From NCBI GenBank assembly GCA_963700335.1, contig CAVOXE010000004.1:124633-188632 (forward strand): a stretch of 64,000 nucleotides of DNA, written 5' to 3'. The stretch comes from Nitrospirota bacterium (GTDB lineage: Bacteria; Nitrospirota; Nitrospiria; Nitrospirales; Nitrospiraceae). The translations under genes and the position numbers were made by a program. The notes beneath the pieces are model-generated. The model was not told where the DNA came from and searched no databases. It worked only from the letters and a program-made list of their open reading frames with translations. Positions 9,684 to 64,000 of this stretch are shown in pieces. How positions within the stretch are numbered: position 1 is the first letter of the stretch; each line of letters opens with the position of its first letter.

Positions 9684-9848
9684 ATGTCTTGTCCACGTTG
9701 CTCCGGTCTCCTCGTACCCGAGTCGTTAGAGGATCGAGAAAGTACCTATTTGAAATGTTTGGCGTTCAAATGTGTGAGCTGCGGAAATGTCGTCGATCCC
9801 CTGATTACGAAGCATCGCCAACTAGGGCAACCCTCTTACCGACTGTAA
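9684..9848 (+). CDS. Small (54 aa) four-cysteine zinc-ribbon protein
   Basis: Too short for the ORF track. ATG at 9684 lies 5 nt after AAGGAGG. Translation: MSCPRCSGLLVPESLEDRESTYLKCLAFKCVSCGNVVDPLITKHRQLGQPSYRL. It has CxxC...CxxC and is a paralogue of 21569..21793. Confidence 0.5.
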   Translation: MSCPRCSGLLVPESLEDRESTYLKCLAFKCVSCGNVVDPLITKHRQLGQPSYRL

Positions 9849-9961
9849 AAGGAGATGGCAAGCAAGGACATTGTTGCTCACTCGTGCGCGTGTCCGCATT
9901 GCACCGTCTCCGTATGAACTTGGCCATGGTATAGTGAAGCACGATACTTTGCCGGCTGCTG

Positions 9962-29010: not shown

Positions 29011-29223
29011 TCCTTCCACTCCTGATTCGTCACCCATGGCAGCGCCTCCTTTACTGTTAGAGAAGAATGTTGTCATTTCTTTCATAAGACGATCGCTGTA
29101 GCTGGATCGGTATGCAGATGATGAGTACATTGTGACTACGATGTGACGCACGGTGAACCTGTTGCATCAACTAGTAGACAAATAGTGCCGACAACCAATC
29201 AGCAAATGAAGGGCGGAGCAACT

Positions 29224-36345: not shown

Positions 36346-38437
36346 ATGAATCGACCAAGATTCTTCGCTTTATTGCTGGCAGTCGCCATAAGCGTGAGTC
36401 TTAAGTTTGGGGCTGCGTATGCACAAACTCCCTCTCACAGTCGGTCGGTGGGACTTGGGCCCTGTGTGGGATATTGCACCGGTCCACATGGTGCTACTGC
36501 CTAATGGAAAGGTGATGTTCTGGCCGGGAGATTATATTAGCGGGGATGATGCCCGTCTGTGGGATCCGGTCACGAACACCCTGACCAGTCTCTCGAAGGC
36601 GACGTACGATCTCTTTTGCGCCGGTCATACGTTGATGTCGGACGGCAATCTCTTCGTTCCAGGAGGAAATCTCCTCACCCCCTTCAATGGATTGCCCAAC
36701 GCCAGCATCTACAATCCGGTGACCAATATCTGGACACGGTTGCCGGACATGAATGCCGCCCGTTGGTATCCGACCACTACCGCGACGGGCAACAGACGAA
36801 GTACTGGTCATGACGGGCACGATTGATAGCGTTCAACTGGAAAATCCACTGCCGCAGGTTTGGCAACCGTCACGCTGGGAGCCTGGCGCAATCTCACGAA
36901 CGCGCTTCTCAAAATCTACAACTATTCCTGGGTGTATTGGACTCCGTTTGGGAATGCCTTTGTGGCGGGCCCGCGGCAAAACACACGTTATCTCAATATT
37001 TCAGGCACTGGAGCGTGGACCGACGTTGCCACGTTCAATTATCCCGACGTACGTGATTACGGGTCCTCGGTCATGTATGGCGGCCCATGGAACATCCTCA
37101 TTGCGGGCGGCGGCCAGCCACCGACCAATACGGCCGAAATCATCGATCTGGCGGATGCAACTCCGACTTGGCAGTACACCAACCCGATGGCCTATCCACG
37201 TCGGCATTTCAATCTCACGCTGTTACCCGATTCGAATGTGCTGGCCATCGGCGGCTCGGGCGGCACTGGATTTAACGATACGACCTGTCCCGTCTATCCA
37301 TCCGAAATGTGGAACATCTTTACCCACACCTGGACGACGATGGCGAGCCAGACGGTGGGACGGTTTTACCATTCGAGTGCGCTCTTGCTGCCGGACGGAC
37401 GGGTGCTGAGCGCCGGTGGAAACTATACGTATCAGACGGAGATCTATTCGCCTCCGTATCTTTTTAAGGGAGCCCGGCCGACGATCACGTCCGCTCCTAC
37501 CAGCGCCGACTACGGAACGACGTTCTTCGTCGGCACACCGAATGCGACCAGCATTGCGAATGTCAGGCTGATCCGTCTGGCAGCCGTCACCCATGCGTTC
37601 GATCAGAACCAGCGGTATCTTCCGCTGAGCTTTACGCCAGACCACTGGAGGGACTCAATGTCACCGCTCCCCCAGATAGCAACAAGGCTCCTGTCGGCCA
37701 CTATATGCTGTTTATCCTGAACGCGAACGACGTGCCCTCAGTCGCGAAAATCATTCAAATCGGGGTTGCGGGAGCGCCACCGCCGCCGCCACCGCCGCCG
37801 CCGCCACCGCCGCCTCCACCGCCGCCGCCGCCACCACCACCGCCGCCGCCTCCACCGCCGCCCCCTCCAGGCATTCCTGCGGCACCGACCGGACTTGTGA
37901 CGACAGTCAGTGTCTAGTACTCAGATCAACCTGACCTGGGTTGATAATGCGAACAATGAGAGTGGATTCAAAATAGAACGTACAACAGGAACGGGTAGTT
38001 TTGCTCAAATAGCGACGGTAGGGACAAACGTCACGACGTATTCGAACACTGGTTTGACGGCTGCAACGAACTACAGCTATCGCGTGCGCGCAACAAACAG
38101 CAGTGGCGACTCCGCATATTCCAATACTGCGACCGCAACCACGCAGACCGCCGGAGCACAGTCTCTCACGCTCAACGGGGGGACCGGGCCGATCACCGTC
38201 GCACGGGGGGCCACGATCACGATCACAGTCGTGAATCCCACGGGCAATTCCCTAAGATTGGATCGGGATTTATAAGGTCGGCCAGTCATCGAGTACCAAG
38301 AGTGTAGTGGAGCATTATGTCAATATACAACCTATACGATTCCCTCCAGCACACCGGTCGGCACATATGAGGCCGATTATTTGCCAATGATTCGCTCTAT
38401 TCTGTTGGCGACGAGTGCTACGATCACGGTGCAATGA
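36346..38437 (+). pseudogene. Secreted glyoxal/galactose-oxidase-like protein (Kelch propeller + DUF1929 E-set) with poly-Pro linker, FN3 domain and a C-terminal domain; at least 7 frameshifts
   Basis: Signal peptide MNRPRFFALLLAVAISVSLKFGAAYA with AAGGA RBS. Family blocks: DLFCAGHTLMSDGNLFVPGG, ARWYPTTT, GRFYHSSALLLPDGRVLSAGG, IYSPPYLFKGARPTI, VTHAFDQNQRYLPL and APVGHYMLFILNANDVPSVAKIIQI. Then 31 Pro. Then FN3 (INLTWVDNANNESGFKIERTT...YSYRVRATNSSGDS). The tail ends ...LLATSATITVQ. The pieces are track ORFs 36407.., 36753.., 36860.., 37705.. and 37910.. plus unlisted frames. Confidence 0.65.
37777..37869 (+). repeat. Run of 31 consecutive proline codons (CCG/CCA/CCT), a low-complexity triplet tract
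   Basis: Read directly from the sequence. Track ORF 37705..37917 shows A-P(31)-GIPAAPTG. Confidence 0.95.
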
Positions 38438-38470: not shown

Positions 38471-38652
38471 AGTGCCGAAGCTCTAATGGCACGCGGAGCT
38501 TGCTTTGATAGATAGTCAACGGAAGCAACCTGCACATCGCTTGCTTCTCCTTGGGTAGCGGGTGTTGGATTCACCCTCGACGGCTCTCTCGAATAGTCCC
38601 CATCCGCTATTAGGATCATTTGTCTTGCCCAGACGGCGGAAAACTCGCTCAA

Positions 38653-39885
38653 ATGGAAATAAGCTATTACCACAAGGCACTAGTCGTGGCCGTCATTGCC
38701 GTCTTCTACACGTATGTGCCCCCGTATATATACGGGGTGTTCGGGTCACCGCTCGAATGGAAACATTGGATGATGGTGTTTTGGGTGCTCGCATTACCGG
38801 TCATTCTCACGCACGCGACTTCATGGAATGCACTCGGATCACCCATCATGGGTTGGGTCGTGGCGTATGTGGTTATGACCTTGACATGGTTTGCGCTTTC
38901 TTCACAGTCGGACATGTCCTGGCAGGAAGTGCGAAACCGTCTCATGGCAATTCTAGAGATTCTGTCTTTTCTGCTGATATTCTGGGAACCGGTGGCGGCC
39001 CGATTGGCAAGGAAGACCTTGGTTGGGGCAGTTATCGCCGGAGCCGTTATCAATATCTATGAAATTTTCTTTCCTATGTCCTTCAGCGCGGTTCTCGGCC
39101 GTTCAGCGGGTCTCTACGGCAATCCCACTCAAGCTGGGGAAGCATTAGTCTTGGGTATGATCGTCTGCGTCACTGTCTTAGAGCCAAAATATCGAGGTCC
39201 CTTCATGCTGCTGACCGGGATCGGTATTTTCACGACGTTCTCTCGCGCTGCTATTCTGGGATGGGTAATTGCCGTCGCAGGCCTCCTATTCGTGCGCAAG
39301 CTCTCTTTAAAAGATTTTCTGCCGTCAGTGTTCGTGGGGCTCGTACTAGGACTGTTAATATTACTCCCTTACTGGGATACACTGCTTACAACGTGGGACA
39401 GGAATGGTGTGTCCAACTCGAATGTGGAGGAACGACTCGCCTGGTTCAGTGATCCATCCGGTGTATCCGATTATTCAAGTTGGGAGCGGAAGTATCTAGC
39501 GCAGCGAGCCTGGGAGAAGATTGCGGAACGCCCAATCCTGGGAAGCGGAACCGGATCTTCATATGCAGCATACACAGCGCCGCATAATCAGTATTTATCC
39601 TTCATGCTGGACCACGGTCTTATCGGTGCACTGGTCATACCCATGCTCCTCGTAACCATAATGTGGGGTGCGCAAGGTGAGACAAAACAAGTGGCCATCG
39701 TTTTTAGTTGTGTAGTTCTGGTCCTATGTTTTTTTACGCACACTATTCTCAACACGACATACAGCCTGGTTCTATTTTCTTTGATGACCGCTATGACGGC
39801 TACGAGTAGTCGCTATGAAATGACAAACAGCAGGATTAGGGAAACGCGGGACGTACGCACGGCACAGGTTTTAGTCCAGGCCTGA
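38653..39885 (+). CDS. O-antigen ligase/polymerase-like (Wzy_C) multi-pass membrane protein
   Basis: About 10 hydrophobic helices. FTTFSRAAILGWVIAVAGLLFV and a periplasmic loop with ...GSGTGSSYAAYTAPHNQYLSFMLDHGLIG are typical of the Wzy_C/O-antigen-ligase family. Track ORF starts at the TTG at 38620. Confidence 0.75.
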   Translation: MEISYYHKALVVAVIAVFYTYVPPYIYGVFGSPLEWKHWMMVFWVLALPVILTHATSWNALGSPIMGWVVAYVVMTLTWFALSSQSDMSWQEVRNRLMAILEILSFLLIFWEPVAARLARKTLVGAVIAGAVINIYEIFFPMSFSAVLGRSAGLYGNPTQAGEALVLGMIVCVTVLEPKYRGPFMLLTGIGIFTTFSRAAILGWVIAVAGLLFVRKLSLKDFLPSVFVGLVLGLLILLPYWDTLLTTWDRNGVSNSNVEERLAWFSDPSGVSDYSSWERKYLAQRAWEKIAERPILGSGTGSSYAAYTAPHNQYLSFMLDHGLIGALVIPMLLVTIMWGAQGETKQVAIVFSCVVLVLCFFTHTILNTTYSLVLFSLMTAMTATSSRYEMTNSRIRETRDVRTAQVLVQA

Positions 39886-39944: not shown

Positions 39945-41182
39945 ATGGCACGGTTGCGGTCAAATGTTCATGAAAAGCGGAATGCGAAGGGGATTTACCT
40001 TGCCGATGCCGATTCAGAAATTACTGGCAATTCCAGAAAGCCCATTGCGATCCTATGCTTGATCACCGGCCTTGAGTACGGCGGCGCTGAGATGATGCTG
40101 TATAAGTTTCTTTCGCGCATGGACAAAACAAGGTTTACGGCCCAGGTTATTTCGATGATCGATCTCGGTCCTTTCAGCGGAAGAATCCAAGAGTTGGGTG
40201 TGCCTCTGTTGTCCCTTGGGATGCGACGGGGAAGTCCGAATCCGACTGGCATCCTACGGCTTGTTCGTTGGCTTCGCCAAAACCGACCTGATGTCATACA
40301 AACGTGGATGTACCACGCCGACCTCATGGGTGGCTTCGCAGCCAAGCTGGCGGGAGGCATACCGGTTGCATGGAACATTCGACACACAGAATTTATTGCT
40401 CACGACAATCCGACTAACCGTGTATACGATGCGGATGTGCGCTCGATTATCTAAGTGGCTTCCCACCCGCATTGTCTGCTGTTCGGAAGCCTCTCGGGAA
40501 GTGCACACCAAACTAGGATATGCAGCCGAAAAAATGGTCGTAATTCCTAACGGAATGGATTTGGCTGCTTTCAGGCCTGATGAGGCGGCGCGCGACTCGG
40601 TCAGGAAGGAACTTAACCTTTCATCTGATGTCGTGATTATCGGCATCGTGGGAAGATTCGACCCAAACAAAGACCATCGGAATTTCATTCAGGCTGCCGC
40701 TTTACTGTGTCGCGAAGGATTAAACGCACATTTCCTGTTTTGTGGCGACGATATGACCTGGGAGAATACTCAACTAGCCTCGTGGTTTGATGGGACAGGT
40801 ATCGGAGAACATAGCCATTTGCTCGGTCACCGAGATGATATGCCTCGTCTGACGGCCGCCTTTGATATTGCCTGCGTTTCTTCTTCGAGTGAGGGCTTTC
40901 CAAATGTCATCGGGGAGGCCATGAGCTGTGAGATTCCGTGTGTGGTGACTGATGTTGGAGACTCGGCGCTGATCGTTGGCCAAACTGGCACGCGTTGTGC
41001 CTCCGCGAGATTCTAAAGCGTTGGCTGCCGGCTTGCGCGAGTTGATCGATCTCGGCCGTGAGGGGCGACGCCAGATTGGCAGAACGGCTCGTCAACGGGT
41101 AAAAGAACTCTATGACTTGCCCGACATTGTACGGCGGTACGAGAACCTCTACGAGGAACTGGCAAATACCTATCGCTCGTAA
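39945..41182 (+). pseudogene. GT4-family glycosyltransferase, 2 frameshifts; tandem paralogue of 41317..42591
   Basis: Track ORFs 39945..40454, 40198..41016 and 40976..41182 align end to end with the intact neighbour. Shared blocks: LCLI(T/S)GLE(Y/H)GG(A/T)EMMLY, RPDVIQTWMYHADL, EGFPNVIGEAMSCEIPCVVTDVGDSALIVGQTG and LPDIVRRYENLYEELA. The breaks lie near 40400 and 40990. Confidence 0.7.
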
Positions 41183-51224: not shown

Positions 51225-52812
51225 ATGGTTACCACCGATAGGATCCGTTCATATGTCGATACCGGCGTCCGTCTCGCCGCCGACATGATTATGGTCAACG
51301 TCTCGCTGGCGTTCGCCATGTTGGCGCGGTACTTCATCGTCCTCTGGGTAGAAGGGAGTCTATCGCCGCATGACGTACTTCTCGATTATGTTCGGACAAT
51401 TCGTCCATAGCTTTTGGATTCTGACGATCATTTCCATGGCTGTGTTTTACATCAGCGGGTTTTATACCCGTGGACGGTTCTACCAAGGTCAATATAAAGC
51501 GCTCGTGGTCGCGCAAGCAGTCAGCCTCAGCTATCTCATGTTCGGCTTTGTCTCCATGCTCTCACACGGAGCGATCGTATTGCCGCGCAGCGTCTTCTTT
51601 ATCGGTTGGGCGGTTACCGCCGGCGTATTGATTCTGTCGCGGCTCTGGACAATGTTGTGGCGAATGATGGATGGAACCTCCATGCCGATGGATCGTCGCA
51701 GAGGTGTGACGAAAGGACAGAGGACAAGGAAAATTCTCGTCATCGGAGGAGCGGGGTACATTGGATCGGCGCTGCTGCCCAAGCTGTTGGACCGTGGATA
51801 TCATGTGCGTCTGTTGGACTTGTTCTTGTTCGGAAAGGGTCCCATCGTCGATGTGATTGGCCACCCCAATTTACAAATCGTGCATGCCGATTTTCGTCAC
51901 GTCGATCGCATCGTTCAAGCGATGAACGGTATGGATGAGGTGATTCATCTGGGGGCGATCGTCGGCGATCCCGCCTGCTCCTTGGATCAGGAATTGACCG
52001 TCGAAGTGAATTTGATGGCGGTTCGGATGATTGCCGAAGTGGCGAAGGGAAGCGGCATCCGACGGTTTTGCTTTGCGAGTACCTGCTCTGTATATGGAGC
52101 CAGCGATGAGTTTTTAGAAGAGCGATCGCATCTGCACCCGCTTTCACTCTATGCGCGAAGCAAGCTTGCGTCTGAAAAGGTTCTGACGCAGATGGCGGAC
52201 GAGCAATTTTCGCCCGTCATTCTTCGGTTAGGGACGGTGTATGGATTGTCCGGACGCACTCGCTTCGATCTGGTGATCAACCTATTGACCGCAAAAGCGG
52301 TGAAAGAAGGAAAGATCACGGTATTCGGAGGCGGACAGTGGAGGCCGTTCCTGCATGTCAACGATGCCGCCCTTGCCTTATTGAAGGCGGTCGAAGCGCC
52401 CACGGATCTCATTCACGGACAAGTCTTCAATGTGGGATCCAACGAGCAAAACTATCGGTTAGGAGATGCGGCAGCCATCATCCAGTCACTGGTGCCTGGG
52501 TCGGAAGTCGTCGATATGGGAGCCGATACGGATTTCAGAAATTATCGGGTCGACTTTTCCAAGATTAAAAAGATGTTGAACTTCACTCCGGAATGGACCT
52601 TAGAGCAGGGGATTAAACAGGTGATTGCGGCATTCGATAAAGGCGAAGTGTTGGATTATCGGAATGCCATGTACAGCAATGTCAAATTCCTCATCGAGGA
52701 AGCGAACTCCCGCTTGATCCGACGTGAGAAAGGATGGGCGCACGAGCTTCTGAAGGAAGAAGTGAAGCCGTCAAATGGTTCGAATGGGCCTGTCGTCGTG
52801 GCGACACATTGA
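51225..52812 (+). pseudogene. Membrane-anchored NAD-dependent sugar epimerase/dehydratase, 1 frameshift in the N-terminal TM region
   Basis: Track ORF 51225..51410 holds the first TM helix (RLAADMIMVNVSLAFAMLARYFIVL). ORF 51370..52812 holds three more TM helices. The SDR domain follows: ILVIGGAGYIGSAL, HLGAIVGDP, LYARSKLASE. The junction is near 51395 (acaattcg). Confidence 0.7.
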
Positions 52813-52863
52813 CGCAAACGGATTGTAAAAGGAATCAGTCACCATGCAGGCAGACGTAGCGGT

Positions 52864-53889
52864 ATGAGTATCAGACACAAAACAAGGCGCCTTGGTCATT
52901 TCGTTGGACTTCGAGCTCTACTGGGGCATGCGAGATGTAAGGGGGATCGAGAATTATCGGGAGACTCTCTTAGGGGAGCGACTGGTCGTTCCGGCCCTGT
53001 TGCAGCTCTTTCAGGAGTATGAGATTCATGCCACATGGGCGACGGTCGGCTTTATGTTCTGTGAGACGCGCGATGAACTCCTCCGGCAAGCGCCGACGCA
53101 AGAAGCCACTGTATGTCAATCACGAACTTTCGCCATATCCTCACCTCTCACACGTCGGACGGGACGAACAGGAAGACCCATTTCATTTTGCGCCTTCGCT
53201 CATCAAGCTCATCGCGTCGTCCCCCCATCAGGAAGTGGCAACCCACACGTTCTCTCATTACTATTGTTTAGAAAAAGGACAAGACATAGAGTCCTTCCGT
53301 GCTGATCTCGAAGCGGCGAAGAAGGTCGCGAGCAAATATACATTGAATATGGAAAGTCTTGTATTCCCACGCAACCAATTCAATGGCGACTATCTCTCGG
53401 CGTGCAAGGAATTAGGCATCAAGGCCTATCGTGGCAACGAACGTTCGTGGATTTACAGGGCGAAAAGCAGAGAGGATGAATCCCTATTTCGCCGTGCAGT
53501 GCGGCTCCTGGATGCCTATGTCAATATCTCAGGTCATAACTGCTATGCTCTCGAACGGCTTCCGCGCGACAGTACCAGTAAATGTTCCGTCAAGCCGATT
53601 TCTTCGGCCTGTTTCCATCAGTCGTCGGTTGCTGGAGCCTTTGCGTATGCGCCGGATCCTGTCCGATCTGACGCATGCGGCAAAGAAGGGATTGGTGTAT
53701 CACCTGTGGTGGCATCCGCATAATTTCGGCGACCACATGGAAGAAAACTTGGCGTTTCTCAAAAAGATTTTGGATCATTACGCGAATCTGAAAAAGGTTT
53801 ATGGCATGGAAAGTCTTAATATGGGAGACATCGCTCGGAGAGCATTGAATGGCAATGACGTCGTACATAACGCCTTGGTAAATGGGTAG
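52864..53889 (+). pseudogene. Polysaccharide deacetylase-like protein, 3 frameshifts
   Basis: ATG at 52864 (MSIRHK), then a shift in an A-run into LVISLDFELYWGMRD... (ORF 52892..). It continues in ORF 53019.. (EVATHTFSHYYC, LVFPRNQF) and ORF 53431.. (LVYHLWWHPHNFG). Family call is moderate. Confidence 0.55.
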
Positions 53890-54798
53890 GCTTTCATTTC
53901 TGATAAGGCATCTTATGAATGTGAACCTAAGGCCCTTCACGGCCTCGATTCCCTGGTGGGGAAAGATCGCCGCGAAACTGGTTTTGGCGCGTTTACCGGT
54001 AGATTATACAATCTGGAAAGGGTTGCACTTATTCGAGTGCGGCCTCATGGAAGATCCCAGCTATGCCTATGGCGTATTTAAAAAACATTATGATGCGGCC
54101 CAATCACGACGGACATTCCGTGGGTTCGTCGGACTGGAGCTAGGCCCAGGAGATTCGCTATTCACAGCGATGATTGCCAATGCGTACGGGGCCACGGGCT
54201 ATTATTTGGTTGATGTGAAGGACTATGCGAAACGTGACATGCAATGCTATAGGGCCTTGACACAATTTCTCACGGACCGAGGGATTGGCAACGATCTCAG
54301 AAGACGGCTTGACATCGACAGAAGCGCTTCTCACCGCGTGTCATGCGACCTACGGTACGCGCGGGCTCAGATCGTTGCAGGCAATTCCAGATCACTCAGT
54401 CGATTACAGTTGGTCGCACACCGTTCTGCAGCACGTCCCCTTGAAAGAATTTAGACAAACAATCGGAGAGCTCCGGCGCCAGCTTCGTCCCGATGGCATC
54501 AGCTCACATTGGGTAGATCTGCAAGACTGCATAGGGGGAGGCCTGAACAATCTCAGATTCTCAGAAGCCGTGTGGGAATCGCCCTTCATGGCCAACTCCG
54601 GCTTTTACACTAATCGCATACGATATTCGGAAATGTTGGAAGTATTCAAAGAAGCTCGATTCGAAGCTGAGGTCGTACAGTGTCAAGCGTTGGGATCGAC
54701 TTCCGATTCAGCGCTCAAAGCTGTCGCCACGATTTCAGAAGCTGTCTGACGAGGATTTGCGCGTGCGAGTCTTTCATGTGATTTTAAGACCGGTCTAA
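53882..54798 (+). pseudogene. SAM-dependent methyltransferase-like protein, 2 frameshifts
   Basis: GLELGPGDSLFTAMIA (motif I-like) in ORF 53882..54454. VDYSWSHTVLQHVPLKEF...LRPDGISSHWVDL in ORF 54285..54749. The tail RVFHVILRPV is in a third frame and ends with TAA at 54796-54798. Confidence 0.55.
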
Positions 54799-54847
54799 TG
54801 GGTTTGTTATCTAAACTTTCCACGCTTCATAATTAAGGTTGATCGAG

Positions 54848-56312
54848 ATGAGATATATGCTGGGCAGGTTGAAGTATTGTGTGACGTGCTGGGCGTTAAG
54901 CGTGGCACTGAGTTGTGTTTTGATGGTTGACGACCGGGCATGCAGCGTCGTCGACAGCGCATCAAAGTTACCGGCTCGGACCCAATGACGTGGTTCGGAT
55001 CCAAGTCTATGGAGAAGAAGACTTAACGATCGAAAGTAAAATTGATGGCGACGGAAATATTAATTTTCCATTACTGGGGATGGTGACGGTCGCGGGTAAG
55101 ACTCTCCCGGAACTTCAGGAATATCTAGGCGCTCAGTTGGCACGAGGCTATGTTCGCACGCCGCGGGTCACCGCCTATATATTCAAATATCGAAACTTTT
55201 ACGTCAGTGGAGAGGTCAAGACTCCAGGAGGCCATCCGTATGAGGAGGGGCTCAGCGTTCAAAAAGCGATCACGATGGCAGGTGGTCTGACGGACAAGGC
55301 AGAACGGGACAACGTTTACGCCTTACGGCGCGTCAATGGTCAAGAAGAGACAGTGCCGGTTACATTGGAGAGCCCGGTATACCCCGACGATACCATCGTT
55401 GTGCCTGAAGGACAGAAAATATACGTGAGTGGCGAGGTCAAGACGCCCGGCCGCTTTGGTTATGAAAAAGGATTGACCGTCCAAAAAGCGTTGAGCCTGG
55501 CAGGGGGGCGCACAGAAAAGGCGGAAAAAGGTGTCATCAAAGTGACGCGCGTGACGGAAGGCCTGGCGGCAACGTTGCCTGTGAATCCAGAGGCGGTTGT
55601 CATGCCGGGCGACATTCTCGTGGTCGAGCCGCAAGATTATAAATTCTACACCAGCGGAGAAGTGAAAAACCCTGGCGGATATTCCCATAAGGAGGGTCTG
55701 ACCGTTCACAAAGCTATTGCCATGGCAGGAGGGCTCACCGAAAAAGCAATGCCTGGCGATTTGCATATCCTTCGTTCGGTGAATGGACGAGAGGAAACAC
55801 TCGAGGTTAAATTGGATACCTTGGTCCTCCCAGACGACATCATCGTGGTAGCTCAGGGAGAGAAGTTTTTTGTTAACGGAGAAGTGAAGATACCGGGTCG
55901 CTATTTATACGAGAAGGGGCTGACCGTGCACAAGGCCATCACGATGGCCGGTGGGTTTACCGACAAGGCTGAAAAGGCCGCGATTAAAGTCACTCGGCAG
56001 GTCGATGGGAACCCTCACACAGTGGAGGCCGATCTTGAGGCCAGGGTGCTTCCCAATGATTTTATTGTCATCGCCCAGATGCATAAAGTGTATGTGAATG
56101 GAGAAGTAAAGAAGGCCGGTGACTATCCGTATGAGAAGGGCCTGACGATCCATAAAATCATCACTATGGCTGGTGGGTTTACGGACAAGGCGGCGGTGGG
56201 GCGGACGAAGATTTTACGGATTGTGGATGGGGAGGAGCAATCGTTGCGGGTGACGCTGGATGCGCAGGTGTTGCCGGAGGATATCGTCGTGGTGCCGCGC
56301 AGTTTCTTTTAA
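54848..56312 (+). pseudogene. Wza-like polysaccharide export protein A: Poly_export domain + 5 SLBB modules; signal peptide is out of frame
   Basis: Track ORF 54927..56312 starts at a TTG with no signal peptide. An ATG at 54848 encodes MRYMLGRLKYCVTCWALSVALSCVLMV in the -1 frame and would join near 54925-54935. Poly_export: YRLGPNDVVRIQVYGEEDL...INFPLLGMVTVAGKT. Five repeats of the type FYVSGEVK.PG.Y.YE.GLTV.KAI.MAGG.T.KA follow. Confidence 0.75.
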
Positions 56313-56384
56313 GGCGGCGGGGAGACGGACGAAGCGGCCGGGACGGGAGAGTCGTGATTGGAGCGGGACCGTGAGGGAAGGACC

Positions 56385-58286
56385 ATGAACAGAGCACGGG
56401 CGCGAGGGACGAGGGGGCTACGGAAGGGACTGTGGCTGGGCATCCTGCTGGCGTCATGGGTAGCGGTGGCGGTGGCGGCGACCGCGCCCGGGTACCGGCT
56501 GGGGCCCAATGATGTGGTGCGCATTCAAGTCTATGGCGAAGAAGACTTGACGGTGGAGAGCAAGGTGGACGGCGAGGGCACGATTCATTTTCCGTTAGTG
56601 GGCCAGGTGGCGGTCGGAGGGAAGACCACGCAGGAGCTACAGGAGTTGCTGACGACGCGCTTAGCGGGGGGCTATATGCGCGCCCCGCGCGTGACGGCCT
56701 ATGTGTTGAAGTATCGCAATATTTACGTCAGTGGAGAAGTGCGGACGCCGGGCGGACATCCGTATGAGGAGGGCCTCACGGTGCAGAAGGCCATTACGAT
56801 GGCGGGTGGCATTACCGAGAAGGCCGAGCGGGGCGGCGCGGTGCGCATTGTGCGGTCCGTCAACGGGCAGGAGACGGCAGTACTGGTTCAGTTAGACAGT
56901 CTCGTCTTACCGGACGATACGATTGTGGTGGCGGAGGGGCAGCGAGTGTATGTGAGTGGGGAGGTGAAGACGCCGGGGCGGTATCTGTATGAGAAGGGGT
57001 TGACGGTGCACAAGGCGCTGGGGATGGCCGGGGGGCGTTCGGAGAAGGGGGAGAAGGGGCTGATCAAAGTGACGCGGCTGACCCAGGGCGTGGCCGAGAC
57101 GCAGGTGTTGGCGCCGGAGGCGGCGGTGCTGCCCGATGATATTTTGGTGGTGGAGCCGCAGGACTATAAGTTCTACGCGAGCGGCGAGGTGAAGAATCCC
57201 GGCGGCTATCCCTATAAGGAGGGGCTGACGGTGCATAAGGCGCTGGCCATGGCCGGCGGGCTGACGGAGAAGGCCGAGCGCGGAGACGTGCACATCTTAC
57301 GCGCGGGCAAGGGGCAGGAGGAGACGCTGGTCGGCAAGCCCGAGAGCCTCCTGCTGCCGGACGATACGATTGTGGTGGCGGAGGGGCAGCGAGTGTATGT
57401 GAGTGGGGAGGTGAAGACGCCGGGGCGGTATCTGTATGAGAAGGGGCTGACGGTGCACAAGGCGCTGGGGATGGCCGGGGGGCGCTCGGAGAAGGGGGAG
57501 AAGGGGCTGATCAAAGTGACACGGCTGACCCAGGGCGTGGCCGAGACGCAGGTGTTGGCGCCGGAGGCGGCGGTGCTGCCCGATGATATTTTGGTGGTGG
57601 AGCCGCAGGACTATAAGTTCTACGCGAGCGGCGAGGTAAAGAATCCCGGCGGCTATCCCTATAAGGAGGGGCTGACGGTGCATAAGGCGCTGGCCATGGC
57701 CGGCGGGCTGACGGAGAAGGCCGAGCGCGGGGACGTGCACATCTTACGCGCGGGCAAGGGGCAGGAGGAGACGCTGGTCGGCAAGCCCGAGAGCCTCCTG
57801 CTGCCGGACGATACGATTGTGGTGGCGGAGGGGCAGCGAGTGTATGTGAGTGGGGAAGTGAAGACGCCGGGGCGGTATCTGTATGAGAAGGGGTTGACGG
57901 TGCACAAGGCCATTACGATGACCGGCGGCTTTACGGAGAAAGCGGATAAGGCCACGATCCACGTGACGCGCGTCGTCAACGGTGTCGCGCAGACCCGGGA
58001 AGCTACGCTGGAGACGTCCGTGCTGCCGGATGATTTCGTCGTCATCTCCCAGCTGCACAAGATTTATGTCAACGGGGAGGTGAAGAAAGCCGGCGACTAT
58101 CCCTATGAGAAGGGGCTGACGATTCATAAGATCATTACGATGGCCGGGGGCTTTACCGATAAAGCAGCCGCCGGCCGGACGACCATCTTGCGCATCGTCA
58201 ATGGCGAGGAGCAATCCCTCCGCGTCACGCTTGATGCCCTCGTGCTCCCCGAAGATATCGTCGTCGTCCCCCGCAGCTTCTTCTAG
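56385..58286 (+). CDS. Wza-like polysaccharide export protein C: Poly_export domain + 7 SLBB modules
   Basis: The ATG at 56385 (GGGAAGGA RBS) gives the signal peptide MNRARARGTRGLRKGLWLGILLASWVAVAVAA. The Poly_export domain is followed by 7 SLBB repeats. The protein ends ...VVVPRSFF. Confidence 0.85.
   Translation: MNRARARGTRGLRKGLWLGILLASWVAVAVAATAPGYRLGPNDVVRIQVYGEEDLTVESKVDGEGTIHFPLVGQVAVGGKTTQELQELLTTRLAGGYMRAPRVTAYVLKYRNIYVSGEVRTPGGHPYEEGLTVQKAITMAGGITEKAERGGAVRIVRSVNGQETAVLVQLDSLVLPDDTIVVAEGQRVYVSGEVKTPGRYLYEKGLTVHKALGMAGGRSEKGEKGLIKVTRLTQGVAETQVLAPEAAVLPDDILVVEPQDYKFYASGEVKNPGGYPYKEGLTVHKALAMAGGLTEKAERGDVHILRAGKGQEETLVGKPESLLLPDDTIVVAEGQRVYVSGEVKTPGRYLYEKGLTVHKALGMAGGRSEKGEKGLIKVTRLTQGVAETQVLAPEAAVLPDDILVVEPQDYKFYASGEVKNPGGYPYKEGLTVHKALAMAGGLTEKAERGDVHILRAGKGQEETLVGKPESLLLPDDTIVVAEGQRVYVSGEVKTPGRYLYEKGLTVHKAITMTGGFTEKADKATIHVTRVVNGVAQTREATLETSVLPDDFVVISQLHKIYVNGEVKKAGDYPYEKGLTIHKIITMAGGFTDKAAAGRTTILRIVNGEEQSLRVTLDALVLPEDIVVVPRSFF
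56910..57910 (+). repeat. In-frame 447-bp tandem repeat, ~2.2 copies (gene C)
   Basis: The anchor ccggacgatacgattgtggtggcggagggg recurs at 56910, 57357 and 57804, an exact 447-nt period. Units are near-identical. Confidence 0.92.
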
Positions 58287-58454
58287 CCATTTGTTCCACT
58301 GTGCACTCTAGGTTCTTCCAGCCTGTTTCCCTTAATCCTAGTGCCCACCTTCGGTATTAACTACTGAGCGACAGTCGCACCCGGAGTGATTGTTTTGAGG
58401 CCCGTTATCATAAGCGCTTCTGTGAAATGTGAACGAGCGAGCTAAGGTGGAAAT

Positions 58455-59235
58455 ATGAACACTCGATCCCTTCGATTGAAATGGTGTCTGCTCAGTGTAT
58501 TTCTGACTTGCTTGATGTCTACCGCCGGCGTCGCATCACCCATATCCTCGCATCAAAGCTATCGATTAGGGGTCAATGATGTGGTGCGCATCCAAGTCTA
58601 TGGGGAAGAGGACCTGACGGTAGAAAGTAAAGTGGATGGCGATGGGAATATTAATTTTCCTTTGTTGGGGATGATATCCATAGCAGGCAAGACGAGTCTG
58701 GAGTTGCAGGAATATCTCACGACACGGTTGGCGGGCGGTTACGTACGGTCGCCGAAAGTCACGGCGTCCATCCTTAAATACCGAAATTTCTATGTGAGCG
58801 GAGAAGTGAAGAGCCCGGGAGGGTACCCCTATGAGGAAGGACTTAGTGTTCAAAAAGCACTCACCATTGCAGGGGGTATGACGGAAAAGGCCGAGAAGCA
58901 TGACTTGAATATCCTCCGATCGGTCAATGGGAATCCACAGATCCTTCCGGTCAAGGCCGATAGCGTCGTTCTGCCCGATGATACGATTGTCGTGGCGGAG
59001 GGCAAGCGCTTCTATGTCAATGGTGAAGTGAAGTCGCCAGGCCGTTATCTCTACGAGAAAGGCCTCACGGTGCACAAGGCCATCACCATGGTTGGGGGGG
59101 TTTACGGACAAGGCGGCGGTGGGGCGGACGAAGATTTTACGGATTGTGGATGGGGAGGAGCAATCGTTGCGGGTGACGCTGGATGCGCAGGTGTTGCCGG
59201 AGGATATCGTCGTGGTGCCGCGCAGTTTCTTCTAG
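58455..59235 (+). pseudogene. Wza-like polysaccharide export protein D: Poly_export + 2 SLBB modules, frameshifted in a G7 tract
   Basis: Signal peptide MNTRSLRLKWCLLSVFLTCLMSTAGVA. After ...HKAITMVGG the G7 run (59094-59100) throws the frame, so track ORF 58455..59282 ends in Gly/Arg-rich nonsense. With G6 the sequence reads FTDKAAVGRTKILRIVDGEEQSLRVTLDAQVLPEDIVVVPRSFF and stops at 59233-59235. Confidence 0.75.
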
Positions 59236-59309
59236 AGGCGGCGGGGAGACGGACGAAGCGGCCGGGGACGGGAGAGTCGTGATTGGAGCGGGACCGTGAG
59301 GGAAGGACC

Positions 59310-61658
59310 ATGAACAGAGCACGGGCGCGAGGGACGAGGGGGATACGGAAGGGACTGTGGCTGGGCATCCTGCTGGCGTCATGGGTAGCGGTGGCGGTGG
59401 CGGCGACCGCGCCTGGGTACCGGCTGGGGCCCAATGATGTGGTGCGCATTCAAGTCTATGGCGAAGAAGACTTGACGGTGGAGAGCAAGGTGGACGGCGA
59501 GGGCACGATTCATTTTCCGTTAGTGGGCCAGGTGGCGGTCGGAGGGAAGACCACGCAGGAGCTACAGGAGTTGCTGACGACGCGCTTAGCGGGGGGCTAT
59601 ATGCGCGCCCCGCGCGTGACGGCCTATGTGTTGAAGTATCGCAATATTTACGTCAGTGGCGAAGTGCGGACGCCGGGCGGACATCCGTATGAGGAGGGCC
59701 TCACGGTGCAGAAGGCCATTACGATGGCGGGTGGCATTACCGAGAAGGCCGAGCGGGGCGGTGCGGTGCGCATTGTGCGGTCCGTCAACGGGCAGGAGAC
59801 GGCAGTGCTGGTCCAGTTAGACAGTCTCGTCTTGCCGGACGATACGATTGTGGTGGCGGAGGGGCAGCGGGTGTATGTGAGTGGGGAGGTGAAGACGCCG
59901 GGGCGGTATCTGTATGAGAAGGGGTTGACGGTGCACAAAGCGCTGGGGATGGCCGGGGGGCGTTCGGAGAAGGGGGAGAAGGGGCTGATCAAAGTGACGC
60001 GGCTGACCCAGGGCGTGGCCGAGACGCAGGTGTTGGCGCCGGAGGCGGCGGTGCTGCCCGATGACATTTTGGTGGTGGAGCCGCAGGACTATAAGTTCTA
60101 CGCGAGCGGCGAGGTGAAGAATCCCGGCGGCTATCCCTATAAGGAGGGGCTGACGGTGCACAAGGCGCTGGCCATGGCCGGCGGGCTGACGGAGAAAGCC
60201 GAGCGCGGGGACGTGCACATCTTACGCGCGGGCAAGGGGCAGGAGGAGACGCTGGTCGGCAAGCCCGAGAGCCTCCTGCTGCCGGACGATACGATTGTGG
60301 TGGCGGAGGGGCAGCGAGTGTATGTGAGTGGGGAGGTGAAGACGCCGGGGCGGTATCTGTATGAGAAGGGGCTGACGGTGCACAAGGCGCTGGGGATGGC
60401 CGGGGGGCGTTCGGAGAAGGGGGAGAAGGGGCTGATCAAAGTGACGCGGCTGACCCAGGGCGTGGCCGAGACGCAGGTGCTGGCGCCGGAGGCGGCGGTG
60501 CTGCCCGATGATATTTTGGTGGTGGAGCCGCAGGACTATAAGTTCTACGCGAGCGGCGAGGTAAAGAATCCCGGCGGCTATCCCTATAAGGAGGGGCTGA
60601 CGGTGCATAAGGCGCTGGCCATGGCCGGCGGGCTGACGGAGAAGGCCGAGCGCGGGGACGTGCACATCTTACGCGCGGGCAAGGGGCAGGAGGAGACGCT
60701 GGTCGGCAAGCCCGAGAGCCTCCTGCTGCCGGACGATACGATTGTGGTGGCGGAGGGGCAGCGAGTGTATGTGAGTGGGGAGGTGAAGACGCCGGGGCGG
60801 TATCTGTATGAGAAGGGGCTGACGGTGCACAAGGCGCTGGGGATGGCCGGGGGGCGCTCGGAGAAGGGGGAGAAGGGGCTGATCAAGGTGACGCGGCTGA
60901 CCCAGGGCGTGGCCGAGACGCAGGTGTTGGCGCCGGAGGCGGCGGTGCTGCCCGATGATATTTTGGTGGTGGAGCCGCAGGACTATAAGTTCTACGCGAG
61001 CGGCGAGGTAAAGAATCCCGGCGGCTATCCCTATAAGGAGGGGCTGACGGTGCACAAGGCCGTGGCCATGGCCGGCGGGCTGACGGAGAAGGCCGAGCGC
61101 GGGGACGTGCACATCTTACGCGCGGGCAAGGGGCAGGAGGAGACGCTGGTCGGCAAGCCCGAGAGCCTCCTGCTGCCGGACGATACGATTGTGGTGGCGG
61201 AGGGGCAGCGAGTGTATGTGAGTGGGGAGGTGAAGACGCCGGGGCGGTATCTGTATGAGAAGGGGTTGACGGTGCACAAGGCCATTACGATGACCGGCGG
61301 CTTTACGGAGAAAGCGGATAAGGCCACGATCCACGTGACGCGCGTCGTCAACGGTGTCGCGCAGACCCGGGAAGCTACGCTGGAGACGTCCGTGCTGCCG
61401 GATGATTTCGTCGTCATCTCCCAACTGCACAAGATTTATGTCAACGGCGAGGTGAAGAAAGCCGGCGACTATCCCTATGAGAAGGGGCTGACGATTCATA
61501 AGATCATTACGATGGCCGGGGGCTTTACCGATAAAGCAGCCGCCGGCCGGACGACCATCTTGCGCATCGTCAATGGCGAGGAGCAATCCCTCCGCGTCAC
61601 GCTCGATGCCCTCGTGCTCCCCGAAGATATCGTCGTCGTCCCCCGCAGCTTCTTCTAG
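59310..61658 (+). CDS. Wza-like polysaccharide export protein E: Poly_export domain + 9 SLBB modules
   Basis: Near-identical to gene C with one extra 149-aa (two-SLBB) unit. ATG at 59310 has the same RBS and signal peptide. Confidence 0.85.
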   Translation: MNRARARGTRGIRKGLWLGILLASWVAVAVAATAPGYRLGPNDVVRIQVYGEEDLTVESKVDGEGTIHFPLVGQVAVGGKTTQELQELLTTRLAGGYMRAPRVTAYVLKYRNIYVSGEVRTPGGHPYEEGLTVQKAITMAGGITEKAERGGAVRIVRSVNGQETAVLVQLDSLVLPDDTIVVAEGQRVYVSGEVKTPGRYLYEKGLTVHKALGMAGGRSEKGEKGLIKVTRLTQGVAETQVLAPEAAVLPDDILVVEPQDYKFYASGEVKNPGGYPYKEGLTVHKALAMAGGLTEKAERGDVHILRAGKGQEETLVGKPESLLLPDDTIVVAEGQRVYVSGEVKTPGRYLYEKGLTVHKALGMAGGRSEKGEKGLIKVTRLTQGVAETQVLAPEAAVLPDDILVVEPQDYKFYASGEVKNPGGYPYKEGLTVHKALAMAGGLTEKAERGDVHILRAGKGQEETLVGKPESLLLPDDTIVVAEGQRVYVSGEVKTPGRYLYEKGLTVHKALGMAGGRSEKGEKGLIKVTRLTQGVAETQVLAPEAAVLPDDILVVEPQDYKFYASGEVKNPGGYPYKEGLTVHKAVAMAGGLTEKAERGDVHILRAGKGQEETLVGKPESLLLPDDTIVVAEGQRVYVSGEVKTPGRYLYEKGLTVHKAITMTGGFTEKADKATIHVTRVVNGVAQTREATLETSVLPDDFVVISQLHKIYVNGEVKKAGDYPYEKGLTIHKIITMAGGFTDKAAAGRTTILRIVNGEEQSLRVTLDALVLPEDIVVVPRSFF
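59835..61282 (+). repeat. In-frame 447-bp tandem repeat, ~3.2 copies (gene E)
   Basis: The same anchor recurs at 59835, 60282, 60729 and 61176. Confidence 0.92.
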
Positions 61659-61720
61659 TAGAGCAACCTCAGGTAAACGCATCAGGCTAATGAACAACGA
61701 AGAGAACAGTGAGGTGGCCG

Positions 61721-62002
61721 ATGAATAACGAGCCATGGGTCGTCAAAACACGCAATGGAACGGTATGGGGAAAAATTCTTCGTGTCATCATCGATCCAGC
61801 CAGTCGGCAGATCGTATCGGTCGATGTCATGCTTAGCGCACAAGACCGATTTATTCGAGTGCCGTGGAAAAGATTAGAGGTCGAGAACGACGACATCATA
61901 CTGAGCATAACGGAAGGTGAAGTTGAACATCTTGAGTCTCCATCAGGTGCAGGGATGCCAACTACGATGACGCTGGAAGACTCCGCGGCATGTAACGCCT
62001 AG
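61721..62002 (+). CDS. Small PRC-barrel-like protein
   Basis: MNNEPWVVKTRNGTVWGKILRVIIDPASRQIVSVDVMLSAQDRFIRVPWKRLEV fits the PRC-barrel pattern (G..vG.i.d..iD...g.i). GAGGTGG RBS. Track ORF starts at the GTG at 61709. Confidence 0.55.
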   Translation: MNNEPWVVKTRNGTVWGKILRVIIDPASRQIVSVDVMLSAQDRFIRVPWKRLEVENDDIILSITEGEVEHLESPSGAGMPTTMTLEDSAACNA

Positions 62003-62112
62003 AGCTCATACAGTCAATTGCAGCGTCACGGCGAAGTTTGACCGTAGGCCTGAGTTCATGAACACAAAAGGTATCTAACGCCTCCGGCTTTGACGGTTGA
62101 ATAAAGGGCTTC

Positions 62113-62679
62113 ATGTACCGACGGATTTTCATCGCGACAGTTCTCGCAACGGCCGCGTTTCTCGTGGCTCACATCGTGAATTTAATGGTCGCCCATGCCC
62201 TGACACGGAGTATCACCCTTCGCCAGATGTCGGCCAAAATGGAAAATCCTCCGGCTTCGAAAGTCGATCATCTCAAGCTCACCGAAGAAATTCTGGCGAG
62301 CGGAATATTCGGCGGACCGGAAGCTGAAGCGGCTCCCGCATCTTTGCACCCGAAAGGCGCCAGCGCGATCAGTGAAGCGGAGGCTCTCGTGTCGATAGGA
62401 CCGCCGATCGATGCCGCGAAGAAGGTCAAACTAGTCGGAACGGTGGTTGGAGATGATAAGGTCGACCTCGCGGTTGTCGAAGAGATCAGCACAAAGAAAC
62501 AAACGCTCTACCATCTCCATGACTTGATCGTGAACGTGGGGCAGATCACTCAAATTCGAAAAGATGCCATCCTCATTCGGCAAGGCGCGCAACACGAAAC
62601 CTTGGAACTCGACTATGCGGTTTCCCCTGTCCAACCCGGCACACAGGTCGTCATCCCGACCACTCCCTCCGCTCAGTAA
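62113..62679 (+). CDS. Type II secretion GspC-like protein
   Basis: N-terminal TM anchor (IFIATVLATAAFLVAHIVNLMV). The C-terminal HR-type domain KLVGTVVGDDKVDLAVVEEISTKKQTLYHLHDLIVNVGQITQIRKDAILIRQGAQHETLEL is typical of GspC/PilP-like partners of secretins. Confidence 0.65.
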   Translation: MYRRIFIATVLATAAFLVAHIVNLMVAHALTRSITLRQMSAKMENPPASKVDHLKLTEEILASGIFGGPEAEAAPASLHPKGASAISEAEALVSIGPPIDAAKKVKLVGTVVGDDKVDLAVVEEISTKKQTLYHLHDLIVNVGQITQIRKDAILIRQGAQHETLELDYAVSPVQPGTQVVIPTTPSAQ

Positions 62680-62738
62680 AGCTGATGAAAGCGGGCCACA
62701 TTACTCCTGCGAACGAGAGCGCGAATGAAAGGGCAATT

Positions 62739-64000
62739 ATGACTTCACGAGGCTTCCTGAAATGCACATGGCTGCTGTTTGTGGTCGTGCTGGCAGGGCA
62801 GCTGTTGTACAGCACTCCTATGCGGGGGGAGGAGCTAAGCGATCGTGGACGCGTGAGTCTTGATTTCAATGAGGTCGACCTCCCTGTCTTCATTCGGTAT
62901 ATCAGTCAACTGAGCGGGAAACATTTTATTCTCGATGAACGGGTGACGGGCAAGATCACCATGTACTCGCCCTCAAAGGTGTCTCCCGCGCAGGTCTATA
63001 ATTTGTTCCTATCCGCGTTGGAAGTCCGCCGGCTCGCGGCGATTCCCAGAGGAGACGTCATTCAAATCGTTCCAGTGGCGGAAATGCCTCCCGAGCGCAA
63101 TGTGTATGTCTACAAGCTCAAGAACGCCGCAGCCACCGACACGGCAGCCGTATTGACCAATGTCGTGGCACGATCGGTGAACCCGCCACCTGCGCTGGGG
63201 GGCCGTCCACCGCTTCGGCAATCCGGAGAATTCGAGTCTCCTGTCCAGATCTTTGCGGACAAACCCACCAACTCCTTAATTGTCACAGGGAGCCGGACCG
63301 ACTATGAGCGACTCGTGTCGGTGATCAGGTCCCTGGACATACGGCGCAACCAAGTGTTTGTCGAAGCCGTCATTATGGAGGTCAATGTCAGTCGGTTGCG
63401 GCTTCTTGGGCTCGACCCGGTTCAGGGCTTGGCGGCCATCCAAAAAGGGTCCGTCATCCTTCTTGGAGGATTGAACCGGGTGCCGGAGGAGATCAGCGCG
63501 ATTGCCCAATCGCTCACGGGCGCCGGCGCGGGTGCGGGAGGAACTGTCAATTTGCTCAACACGGGAACCCTGCGCCTGTTTCTACAAATTCTGAACAACT
63601 CGACGGATTCCAATATTCTCTCTACCCCGCAGCTTCTCGCGGCGGACAACCAGCGGGCAAAGATCATCGTAGGTGAGAATCGGCCATTCCCCACTGGGCA
63701 AGCCCAGGGAATTACTGGAGGAACCCTCGTGACGATTGAAAGGAAGGATGTGGGGGTGACCTTGGAGATTACGCCGCAAGTATTAGACAATAATTTAATT
63801 CGCCTCGACGTCAAACAGGAAATTACGGCGATTGCCGAAAATGTCGCACAGACGATCGGTTCAGGCAATTCGTCCATTCCCGTGGGTCCAACAACGACGA
63901 AACGAGCAATGGAGACCATTACGATCGTGCCTGATCAACAGACCGTGGTACTTGGGGGGCTCGTACGTGACAATGTCACGTTCAATGAAAGCAAGATTCC
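62739..64000 (+). CDS. GspD-family secretin (type II secretion/type IV pilus-like outer-membrane channel), 3' end beyond the window
   Basis: Not in the ORF track because it has no stop. It is open from the ATG at 62739 to the window end. Signal peptide. N0 (VSLDFNEVDLPVFIRYISQLSGKHFILDERVTGKITMYS). N1 (VYVYKLKNAAATDTAAVL...IFADKPTNSLIVTGSRTDYERLVSVIRSLD). Secretin core (NILSTPQLLAADNQRAKIIVGENRPF...VTLEITPQV...VVLGGLVRD). Confidence 0.85.
   Translation, partial: MTSRGFLKCTWLLFVVVLAGQLLYSTPMRGEELSDRGRVSLDFNEVDLPVFIRYISQLSGKHFILDERVTGKITMYSPSKVSPAQVYNLFLSALEVRRLAAIPRGDVIQIVPVAEMPPERNVYVYKLKNAAATDTAAVLTNVVARSVNPPPALGGRPPLRQSGEFESPVQIFADKPTNSLIVTGSRTDYERLVSVIRSLDIRRNQVFVEAVIMEVNVSRLRLLGLDPVQGLAAIQKGSVILLGGLNRVPEEISAIAQSLTGAGAGAGGTVNLLNTGTLRLFLQILNNSTDSNILSTPQLLAADNQRAKIIVGENRPFPTGQAQGITGGTLVTIERKDVGVTLEITPQVLDNNLIRLDVKQEITAIAENVAQTIGSGNSSIPVGPTTTKRAMETITIVPDQQTVVLGGLVRDNVTFNESKI

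Follow-up and report, generated by a model that had tools for sequence, protein, structure and literature searches.

Analysis of a 64,000-nt stretch of contig CAVOXE010000004.1 (the window) revealed a tandem family of class-3-type outer membrane polysaccharide export (OPX; Wza-like) genes that closes a Wzx/Wzy-dependent polysaccharide locus of Nitrospirales. Four same-strand open reading frames (ORFs), G1–G4, each encode an N-terminal Poly_export domain (PF02563; E 1e-22 to 1e-24) followed by SLBB domains only (PF10531), which number 5, 7, 2 and 9, respectively. Across these genes lies a pair of near-identical segments, S1 and S2, each comprising the end of one gene, a spacer and the whole of the next gene. 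Repeats were characterized by ORF listing, repeat finding, self-BLAST, global alignment and Tandem Repeats Finder, and protein families by Pfam and NCBIfam. Related contigs and loci compared with the window carry L-numbers, and W denotes the window's own genome in strain comparisons. The array consists of the following features:

54927..56312 (+): G1, the 'short' OPX gene, Poly_export and 5 SLBB, 461 aa as assembled (Pfam, NCBIfam)
56172..58286 (+): S1, first repeat copy, 2115 nt: G1 tail, spacer and whole G2 (global alignment, self-BLAST)
56172..56312 (+): t1, the G1 tail carried in S1, last 46 codons and stop, GGFTDKAAVGRTKILRIVDGEEQSLRVTLDAQVLPEDIVVVPRSFF followed by the stop; left homology patch, mainly NNG codons
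56313..56384 (+): G-rich spacer, 72 nt, GC 0.72, with a Shine-Dalgarno-like GGGAAGGA a few bases before the ATG
56385..58286 (+): G2, a 'long' OPX gene, Poly_export and 7 SLBB, 633 aa, ending ...VVVPRSFF (Pfam, NCBIfam)
58287..58454 (+): unique intergenic segment between G2 and G3, matched at first only by L007 and lying also within the collinear matches of the close-strain contigs L031, L032 and L034
58455..59235 (+): G3, the 'mini' OPX gene, Poly_export and 2 SLBB, 259 aa if repaired; the ORF as assembled runs to 59282
59095..61658 (+): S2, second repeat copy, 2564 nt: copy of t1, spacer and whole G4 (global alignment)
59310..61658 (+): G4, a 'long' OPX gene, Poly_export and 9 SLBB, 782 aa (Pfam, NCBIfam)

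The repeat pair and its support in other samples

Global alignment of S1 with S2 gave 2093 identical bases out of 2115 aligned (99.0 %; 22 substitutions), a length and identity for which chance is not an issue, in four blocks:

56172-56311 vs 59095-59234: 138/140 identical
56312-56339 vs 59236-59263: 28/28 identical
56340-56907 vs 59265-59832: 562/568 identical
56908-58286 vs 60280-61658: 1365/1379 identical

Self-BLAST likewise recovered the two copies, which an earlier sequence-only reading had placed at 56176..58286 and 59098..61658, with edges correct to 3–4 nt. That reading had also described each copy as a gene tail, a G-rich spacer with ribosome-binding site and a complete multi-SLBB gene; this composition stands, except that the tail measures 141 nt including the stop rather than ~110 nt. 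Its placement of the two junctions proved accurate. The left junction lies within the GGT/GGG codons of the motif M-A/V-G-G-F-T-D-K-A, and the right junction is the final base of the TAG stop. Identity immediately 5′ of the repeats (56123-56171 vs 59045-59093) is only ~71–75 %, and there is no similarity between S1 and S2 3′ of the two TAG stops. The right junction also falls in shared homology, namely the C-terminal tail common to all paralogues, which ends at the stop codon. The whole region from 54.9 to 61.7 kb is dense in direct repeats with 447-nt and 222/225-nt spacing. A simple tandem duplication with a 2923-nt unit was rejected, as it needs similarity beyond 61658 and none is present.

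S2 exceeds S1 by one 447-nt unit and three 1-nt indels, with extra bases at 59235, at 59264 and within 59093-59102, the G/T run of the left junction. The differences between the copies are overwhelmingly silent: 20 of the 22 are synonymous (17 lie in third positions and two are synonymous first-position Leu changes), and G4 departs from G2 at the protein level only by L12I, L436V and one extra 149-aa unit. This is not the pattern of random consensus errors, and both copies appear to be under purifying selection. The database proteins P0137 and P0134 are identical to G2 and G4, respectively, and both derive from one NCBI/ENA contig of 257,633 nt, evidently the source of the window.

The four-gene order recurs outside the window. 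Six contigs from other samples share it, three of them long-read-style and three short-read, and four of the six cross the junctions. L007 (ENA ERZ25039568, 17.4 kb) is collinear with window positions 51972-64000 and holds the complete G1-G2-G3-G4 array with both junction sequences the same as in the window. L029 (ERZ25039581) covers G1, G2, the intergenic segment and the start of G3, and the JGI contig L034 runs from the end of G2 through G3 to the start of G4 (97.4 %). Among the short-read contigs, L032 joins G2 to G3 through the intergenic segment, L031 extends from the end of G2 through the intergenic segment, G3, spacer and G4 to the PRC-barrel and GspC genes, and L030 carries G1, the spacer and a long gene, at whose stop codon the contig ends. 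The left junction sequence is the same as in the window in L031 and L034 as well. The two long genes and the four-gene order are therefore real and not an assembly artefact. The sequence-only reading had cautioned that such repeats can be mis-assembled; the contigs from other samples answer this for gene copy number and order, while the number of 447-nt units per gene is uncertain because of 484-aa versions in short-read contigs, which are possibly collapsed.

Single-base differences call for more caution. The assemblies of the window, L007, L028 and L029 are indel-rich. Comparison with the proteins of L025 revealed some seven frame changes in conserved window genes from 50.9 to 54.7 kb, with one or two frame switches each in the glycosyltransferase, epimerase, deacetylase and methyltransferase genes; the deacetylase, the methyltransferase and G1 are all intact in the short-read contig L030. 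The split genes between 50881 and 54930 comprise a GT4-phosphoglycosyltransferase fusion, the epimerase, the deacetylase, the methyltransferase and the N terminus of G1, and the Wzc gene is also split; further overlapping same-strand ORF pairs occur, for example, at 29143-31278, 36753-37720, 38562-39885 and 39945-41016. The window looks like an unpolished long-read assembly with many indel errors, and many pseudogenes are less probable. Single-base indels in it should thus not be taken as biology.

From residue 25 on, G1 shares 86.5 % amino-acid identity with the L025 short gene; the G1 frame as assembled lacks an N-terminal signal peptide that its intact 483-aa orthologues (P0124, P0126) retain, and the loss probably stems from an indel near 54927. 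The frame of G3 breaks at GTTGGGGGGGTTT in the window and is restored by removing one base from the run at 59093-59102. L007 is one base shorter at this site, G3 is in frame in L007, L031 and L034, and short-read contigs read GTGGGCGGGTTT or GTGGGTGGGTTT, in frame, which yields a 259-aa protein with the t1 tail. Consensus errors are the most probable source of the G3 frameshift and of the other single-base indels that separate the copies.

Likely gene conversion, unit turnover and proposed origin of the fourth gene

The unique 808-nt segment between the copies provides a measure of strain divergence. It differs between strains at 21–49 of 740 sites (2.8–6.6 %): W is separated from the short-read strains by 21–23 sites and from L007 by 28, and L007 from the short-read strains by 47–49. 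Within genomes, the copies differ in their unambiguous 5′ part (449 shared columns) at 3 sites in W, 0–1 in the short-read population and 9 in L007, and the same 449 columns differ between populations at 4–17 sites. A four-way comparison found nine sites that group both W copies against both L007 copies and three that group the copies by position. Because strains 2.8–6.6 % apart in the unique segment share the junctions, the duplication predates that divergence. This pattern indicates an older duplication whose 2.1-kb copies have since been kept homogeneous by gene conversion that is still ongoing. The sequence-only reading had offered a very recent duplication or, alternatively, ongoing conversion between SLBB modules; with copies ~1 % apart and the segment 2.8–6.6 %, the data support that proposal and favour conversion.

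Conversion is accompanied by turnover of internal repeats. Both long genes contain in-frame arrays of a 447-nt unit, with unit identities of 97.8–99.3 % in W:

56910..57910 (+): 447-nt unit array in G2, two SLBB per unit, 2.2 copies, 98 % (Tandem Repeats Finder)
59833..61282 (+): 447-nt unit array in G4, 3.2 copies, 98 % (Tandem Repeats Finder)
59833..60279 (+): extra 447-nt unit of G4 (149 aa, two SLBB); its placement within the array is arbitrary

G4 encodes nine SLBB domains in W and L028 and seven in L007, which lacks 450 nt (W 59712-60161) in a register unlike that of the difference between G2 and G4 in W. We considered whether the L007 G4 is an 'older, 7 % diverged' copy and rejected this, as most of the excess mismatches reflect the unit deletion in the other register. 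A single 90 % identity cluster contains 484-, 633- and 782-aa proteins, each 149 aa longer than the one before; the shortest were read from short-read contigs and are possibly collapsed. The 447-nt period recurs in the long genes of L027, L025 and L003 with unit identities of 99, 87 and 72 %, so unit homogenization recurs independently across lineages. L027, another Nitrospira genome (4.6-Mb JGI contig), has its own array of 3.2 units at 99 % at 8488-9913. Unequal recombination has added and removed double-SLBB units, yielding seven domains in some long genes and nine in others.

A deletion allele is found in L028, a 603-kb contig that is 98.5 % identical downstream and contains only G1 and one 9-SLBB gene. 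Its first gene switches from G1-like to G3-like at ~56108-56125, ~50–65 nt before the junction. This G3-like patch implies descent from the four-gene state through recombination between the last SLBB domains of G1 and G3, an event that removed G2 and most of G3.

With these data, the 99 % identity is unlikely to reflect simply the young age of a single very recent duplication without later conversion. Such an event would explain why identity is high and even along the tract, and it could draw on the two-gene allele of the close strain L028 and on the distant relatives L001 and L025, which have two genes only. Against it stand the identical junctions in strains 2.8–6.6 % apart whose copies are mostly ≤1.0 % apart within a genome, the nine genome-specific sites common to both copies, and the status of L028 as a derived deletion rather than the ancestral state.

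Comparison of more distant relatives points to how the fourth gene was gained. In two-gene arrays, the short gene precedes the long one in L001 and L025 and follows it in L003 and L027, and two other species, L008 (a Nitrospirales metagenome-assembled genome) and L035, have a short-long-mini array. The mini genes of L008 and L035 encode ~260 aa with 2 SLBB domains, are 80–82 % identical to G3 and have their own tails; G3 is thus the old paralogue and G4 the addition. The ancestral array is short (5 SLBB)-long (7)-mini (2), with a PRC-barrel gene and then a type II secretion operon downstream of it. In the strain group of W, the mini-gene tail, from the GGFTDKA codons to the stop, is replaced by t1, the spacer and a long gene, so that the G3 head (58455-59094) is the old paralogue and the G3 tail (59095-59235) the copy of t1. 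A recent, diverged G1 copy as the source of the G3 head was ruled out by the separate mini-gene orthologues, at 80–82 % identity, in the other species.

A founding event is proposed in which a break in the mini-gene tail, in the ancestor of the strain group, would have been repaired with the short gene's paralogous tail as template. Repair synthesis would have continued through the spacer and the whole long gene until the new strand re-annealed via the conserved long-gene tail. The left junction would then mark where the mini-gene tail paired with the short-gene tail, and the right junction where the long-gene tail paired with the end of the mini-gene tail; the latter would sit at the stop codon because homology among the paralogues ends there. 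Gap repair by synthesis-dependent strand annealing and unequal crossover followed by deletion would give the same product.

The composition of synonymous sites sets the duplicated tract apart. Third-position G is 0.56–0.65 in the tract, reaching 80–83 % in some 90-nt windows, and third-position GC content (GC3) is 0.76–0.84, against 0.31–0.36 and 0.57–0.66, respectively, in the G1 head, the G3 head and neighbouring genes. A sharp step marks position 56172, inside G1, and the GC skew of the tract is +0.2 to +0.3. The last ~370 nt of G2 and G4 are C-rich, not G-rich. The peptides of t1 and of the long-gene tail are nearly identical but encoded by NNG and NNC codons, respectively. Either GC-biased conversion confined to the recombining tract or a foreign cassette origin could account for the G-rich sites. 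Recombination promoted by G-quadruplexes was considered and rejected, since the tract contains no canonical G3+N1-7 motif and only a doubled density of G-runs.

We judge it quite improbable that tail, spacer and long gene were imported horizontally as a cassette and integrated at the tail motif once or twice. The shift in third-position G and GC3 relative to flanking genes, with its sharp step at 56172, fits import, as does the G1 tail, an outlier among the compared tails with 71–76 % nucleotide identity to every other. No donor-like sequence was found, the closest relatives outside the clade being ~77 % identical in protein, and the long genes of other Nitrospirales are also mildly enriched in third-position G. 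The ~370-nt C-rich end means, moreover, that the compositional domain does not match the duplicated tract exactly, and import would still require internal duplication and conversion.

We regard as likely an array history of recombination-driven gain of the fourth gene, followed by gene conversion, gain and loss of units and a deletion allele. Several points weigh against this history or parts of it. The right junction bears no trace of the old mini-gene tail that would tell gap repair from crossover with deletion. The sharp jump in third-position G at the junction is not accounted for by duplication and conversion alone. The L007 copies are less alike, with 9 differences in 449 columns of the 5′ part and 95.5 % identity overall (partly a register difference), so homogenization is not uniform across strains. 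The assemblies are error-prone, and consensus errors may inflate divergence between strains; short-read contigs could have merged copies, exaggerating identity there. Finally, no porin-like match that could represent an outer-membrane partner came from family scans of 38 more ORFs, chiefly larger ones, of the 64-kb window.

Repeat mis-assembly, with only one long gene in reality, is highly improbable as the source of the second copy or the gene order: the window is indel-rich, with ~seven frameshifts from 50.9 to 54.7 kb, near-identical (98 %) tandem units of 447 nt are difficult to assemble and L028 has a single long gene, but 20 of the 22 differences between the copies are synonymous, the copies lie 808 nt apart around a unique segment that encodes an old paralogue with positional counterparts in L008 and L035, contigs from other samples cross the junctions (G2-G3 in L029, L032 and L034, G2 end to PRC-barrel gene in L031, the full array in L007), and L028 itself retains the G3-derived patch of a four-gene ancestor.

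Protein class and genomic setting

Class-3 OPX proteins consist of Poly_export and SLBB domains only (Saidi et al. 2022, PMC9603273). The G1–G4 proteins stop directly after their last SLBB domain, and neither Wza_C (PF18412) nor GfcC (PF06251) was detected even at E ≤ 1 in the last SLBB or in repaired G3; at the sequence level they belong to this class. The best solved-structure match of G3 was 9n9a_A, 'polysaccharide export protein' (186 aa, E 3e-19), followed by Wza. TIGR03027, the XrtA/PEP-CTERM export protein family (cut-off 262.65), scored 273 for G2 and 329 for G4, and TIGR03028, EpsE (cut-off 180), 217 and 252, respectively, scores that sum repeated SLBB stretches; G1 passed the cut-off only for TIGR03027 and G3 for neither. 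No exosortase gene turned up among the window ORFs scanned. Homologues come nearly all from Nitrospira and Nitrospirales. By analogy with characterized family members, both long copies appear to encode functional periplasmic conduit proteins, whose length would be set, from what is known of the family, by the number of SLBB domains. The 2022 survey found 1–7 SLBB domains in class-3 proteins (PMC9603273). Proteins of this type with 9 and 11 exceed that range here, in G4 and at 8001-10370 of L025, 8001-10319 of L027 and 10001-12859 of L003, and arrays of two to four paralogues with very different SLBB numbers (2, 5, 7, 9, 11) are the rule in these genomes. Class-3 OPX proteins can thus far exceed the studied models in length.

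The C-terminal peptide is almost invariant over all paralogues and lineages, ITMAGGFTDKAA.GRTK.LRIV.GEEQSLRV.LDA.VLPEDIVVVPRSFF, at only 67–88 % DNA identity, which indicates very strong purifying selection on the last 46 codons. The almost invariant half-SLBB ending in PRSFF is present in G1, G2, G4 and repaired G3, all four of which close with ...VVVPRSFF, and in the paralogues of L001, L008, L025 and L027, and a ...(R/Q)(S/R)FF C terminus in all paralogues here and in 12 related loci. In M. xanthus WzaB, both secretion and binding of the porin WzpB require S202-F203-F204 (Mellouk et al. 2026, PMC12819527). The constraint on the tail is consistent with a docking role like that of the WzaB Ser-Phe-Phe, and the conserved Ser-Phe-Phe would, from family knowledge, dock an outer-membrane partner. 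The tail is the most constrained part of the protein and also the substrate of rearrangement. Porin partners of class-3 proteins are sometimes encoded far off (PMC9603273). ORF 4463-5665 was considered as a porin candidate and rejected for want of any supporting feature. Oligomerization of WzaB depends on N-terminal lipidation. Of class-3 proteins, ~30 % carry ordinary signal peptides (PMC9603273). The signal peptides of G2 and G4 lack cysteine, so no lipobox is evident, and the signal region of G3 (...FLTC...) fits the lipobox consensus poorly.

Upstream in the window lie genes for a UpxY-type antiterminator, for a Wzc-like co-polymerase/kinase (Wzc/EpsF/EpsG-like, split over 29143-31278), for a Wzy-type polymerase (Wzy_C at 38620-39885) and for glycosyltransferases, with several GT4 genes, and sugar-modifying enzymes. 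The UpxY/RfaH-type antiterminator (28417-29010) heads the polysaccharide locus directly before the Wzc-like gene, which suggests that the ~33-kb same-strand run to the OPX array is a long operon. No Rfam match was obtained at E ≤ 0.1 between 54.0 and 62.8 kb, and a structured RNA or regulatory element in the spacer was rejected on this ground and because promoter- and terminator-like sites are no commoner than in shuffled sequence. With no such site between the four genes, co-transcription is probable. The array is bounded downstream by:

61709..62002 (+): PRC-barrel ORF, 97 aa, downstream array boundary conserved in relatives (Pfam PRC, E 8.7e-7; synteny)
62113..62679 (+): GspC-like gene, first of the type II secretion operon

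Type II secretion genes also follow the array in the relatives L001, L025 and L027. Nitrospirales loci that extend past it (L001, L025, L027, L028 and L031) continue directly with a ~93-aa ORF (mostly PRC-barrel), GspC, a GspD secretin and the remaining type II secretion genes; in L008 only the position of a ~94-aa PRC-type ORF, directly after the mini gene, is visible, and L003 has another downstream context. Elsewhere in the window, a 626-aa ORF at 7102-8982 (-) encodes an animal-type haem peroxidase domain (PF03098, E 5e-26), which is unusual for this bacterial group.

Implications and comparison with known systems

Strains that are 94–99 % identical here carry 5-7-2-9, 5-7-2-7 or 5-9 SLBB arrays, a small natural experiment. 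In soils and wastewater treatment, Nitrospira grow as dense flocs and biofilms, and variation in their polysaccharide export is therefore of some practical interest. For annotation, only long reads should be trusted for SLBB unit counts within a gene, and G3 should not be called a pseudogene without read support. A more speculative proposal, which we consider unlikely, is that the array is a recombination-driven length-tuning device in which gain, loss and conversion of units and genes would let populations rapidly vary the length and mix of periplasm-spanning conduits (2–11 SLBB rings), perhaps docked on a secretin. The periplasm of Nitrospira is unusually wide, and variable conduit length could match it. 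If this were true, the conduit might dock on the adjacent type II secretin instead of a porin, and the purine- and G-rich synonymous sites would be a cause or a footprint of recombination.

The duplication itself is a case of standard non-allelic homologous recombination and concerted evolution combined with variation in domain-repeat number, and nothing indicates a new mechanism. Concerted evolution by gene conversion is known in duplicated bacterial genes such as tufA/tufB and the rRNA operons. There, as here, paralogues within a genome are closer than orthologues, conversion tracts stop where homology does and the repeats yield deletions. The present copies differ in being tandem and only 0.8 kb apart, in a tract that includes the end of the preceding gene and in containing an internal recombining array. 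Variation in repeat number is known in modular surface and envelope proteins such as the streptococcal alpha C/Rib family, in which near-identical, in-frame, whole-domain units are likewise gained and lost by recombination and protein length varies by strain; the unit in the Nitrospirales genes is an SLBB pair of a periplasmic export conduit, not part of an exposed antigen, and no sign of immune or phage selection was found, none having been sought.

At the protein level, the closest parallel is with the class-3 proteins WzaB, WzaX and WzaS of M. xanthus, which also have Poly_export followed only by SLBB domains, neither a Wza_C helix nor GfcC, a C-terminal Ser-Phe-Phe and a Wzx/Wzy-type locus with a Wzc-like co-polymerase. 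The Nitrospirales proteins have 2–9 SLBB domains (11 in the relative L003) as opposed to 1–2 in the myxobacterial class-3 proteins, and are encoded by two to four tandem paralogues; no lipobox is evident in G2 and G4, no gene for an 18-strand porin was found close by, and the array adjoins a type II secretion operon instead. With E. coli Wza (class 1, PDB 2J58) they share Poly_export and SLBB-type ring domains (E ~1e-11 to 1e-12) and a role in polysaccharide export, but unlike Wza they lack the C-terminal amphipathic helix (Wza_C) that crosses the outer membrane and carry many more SLBB domains.

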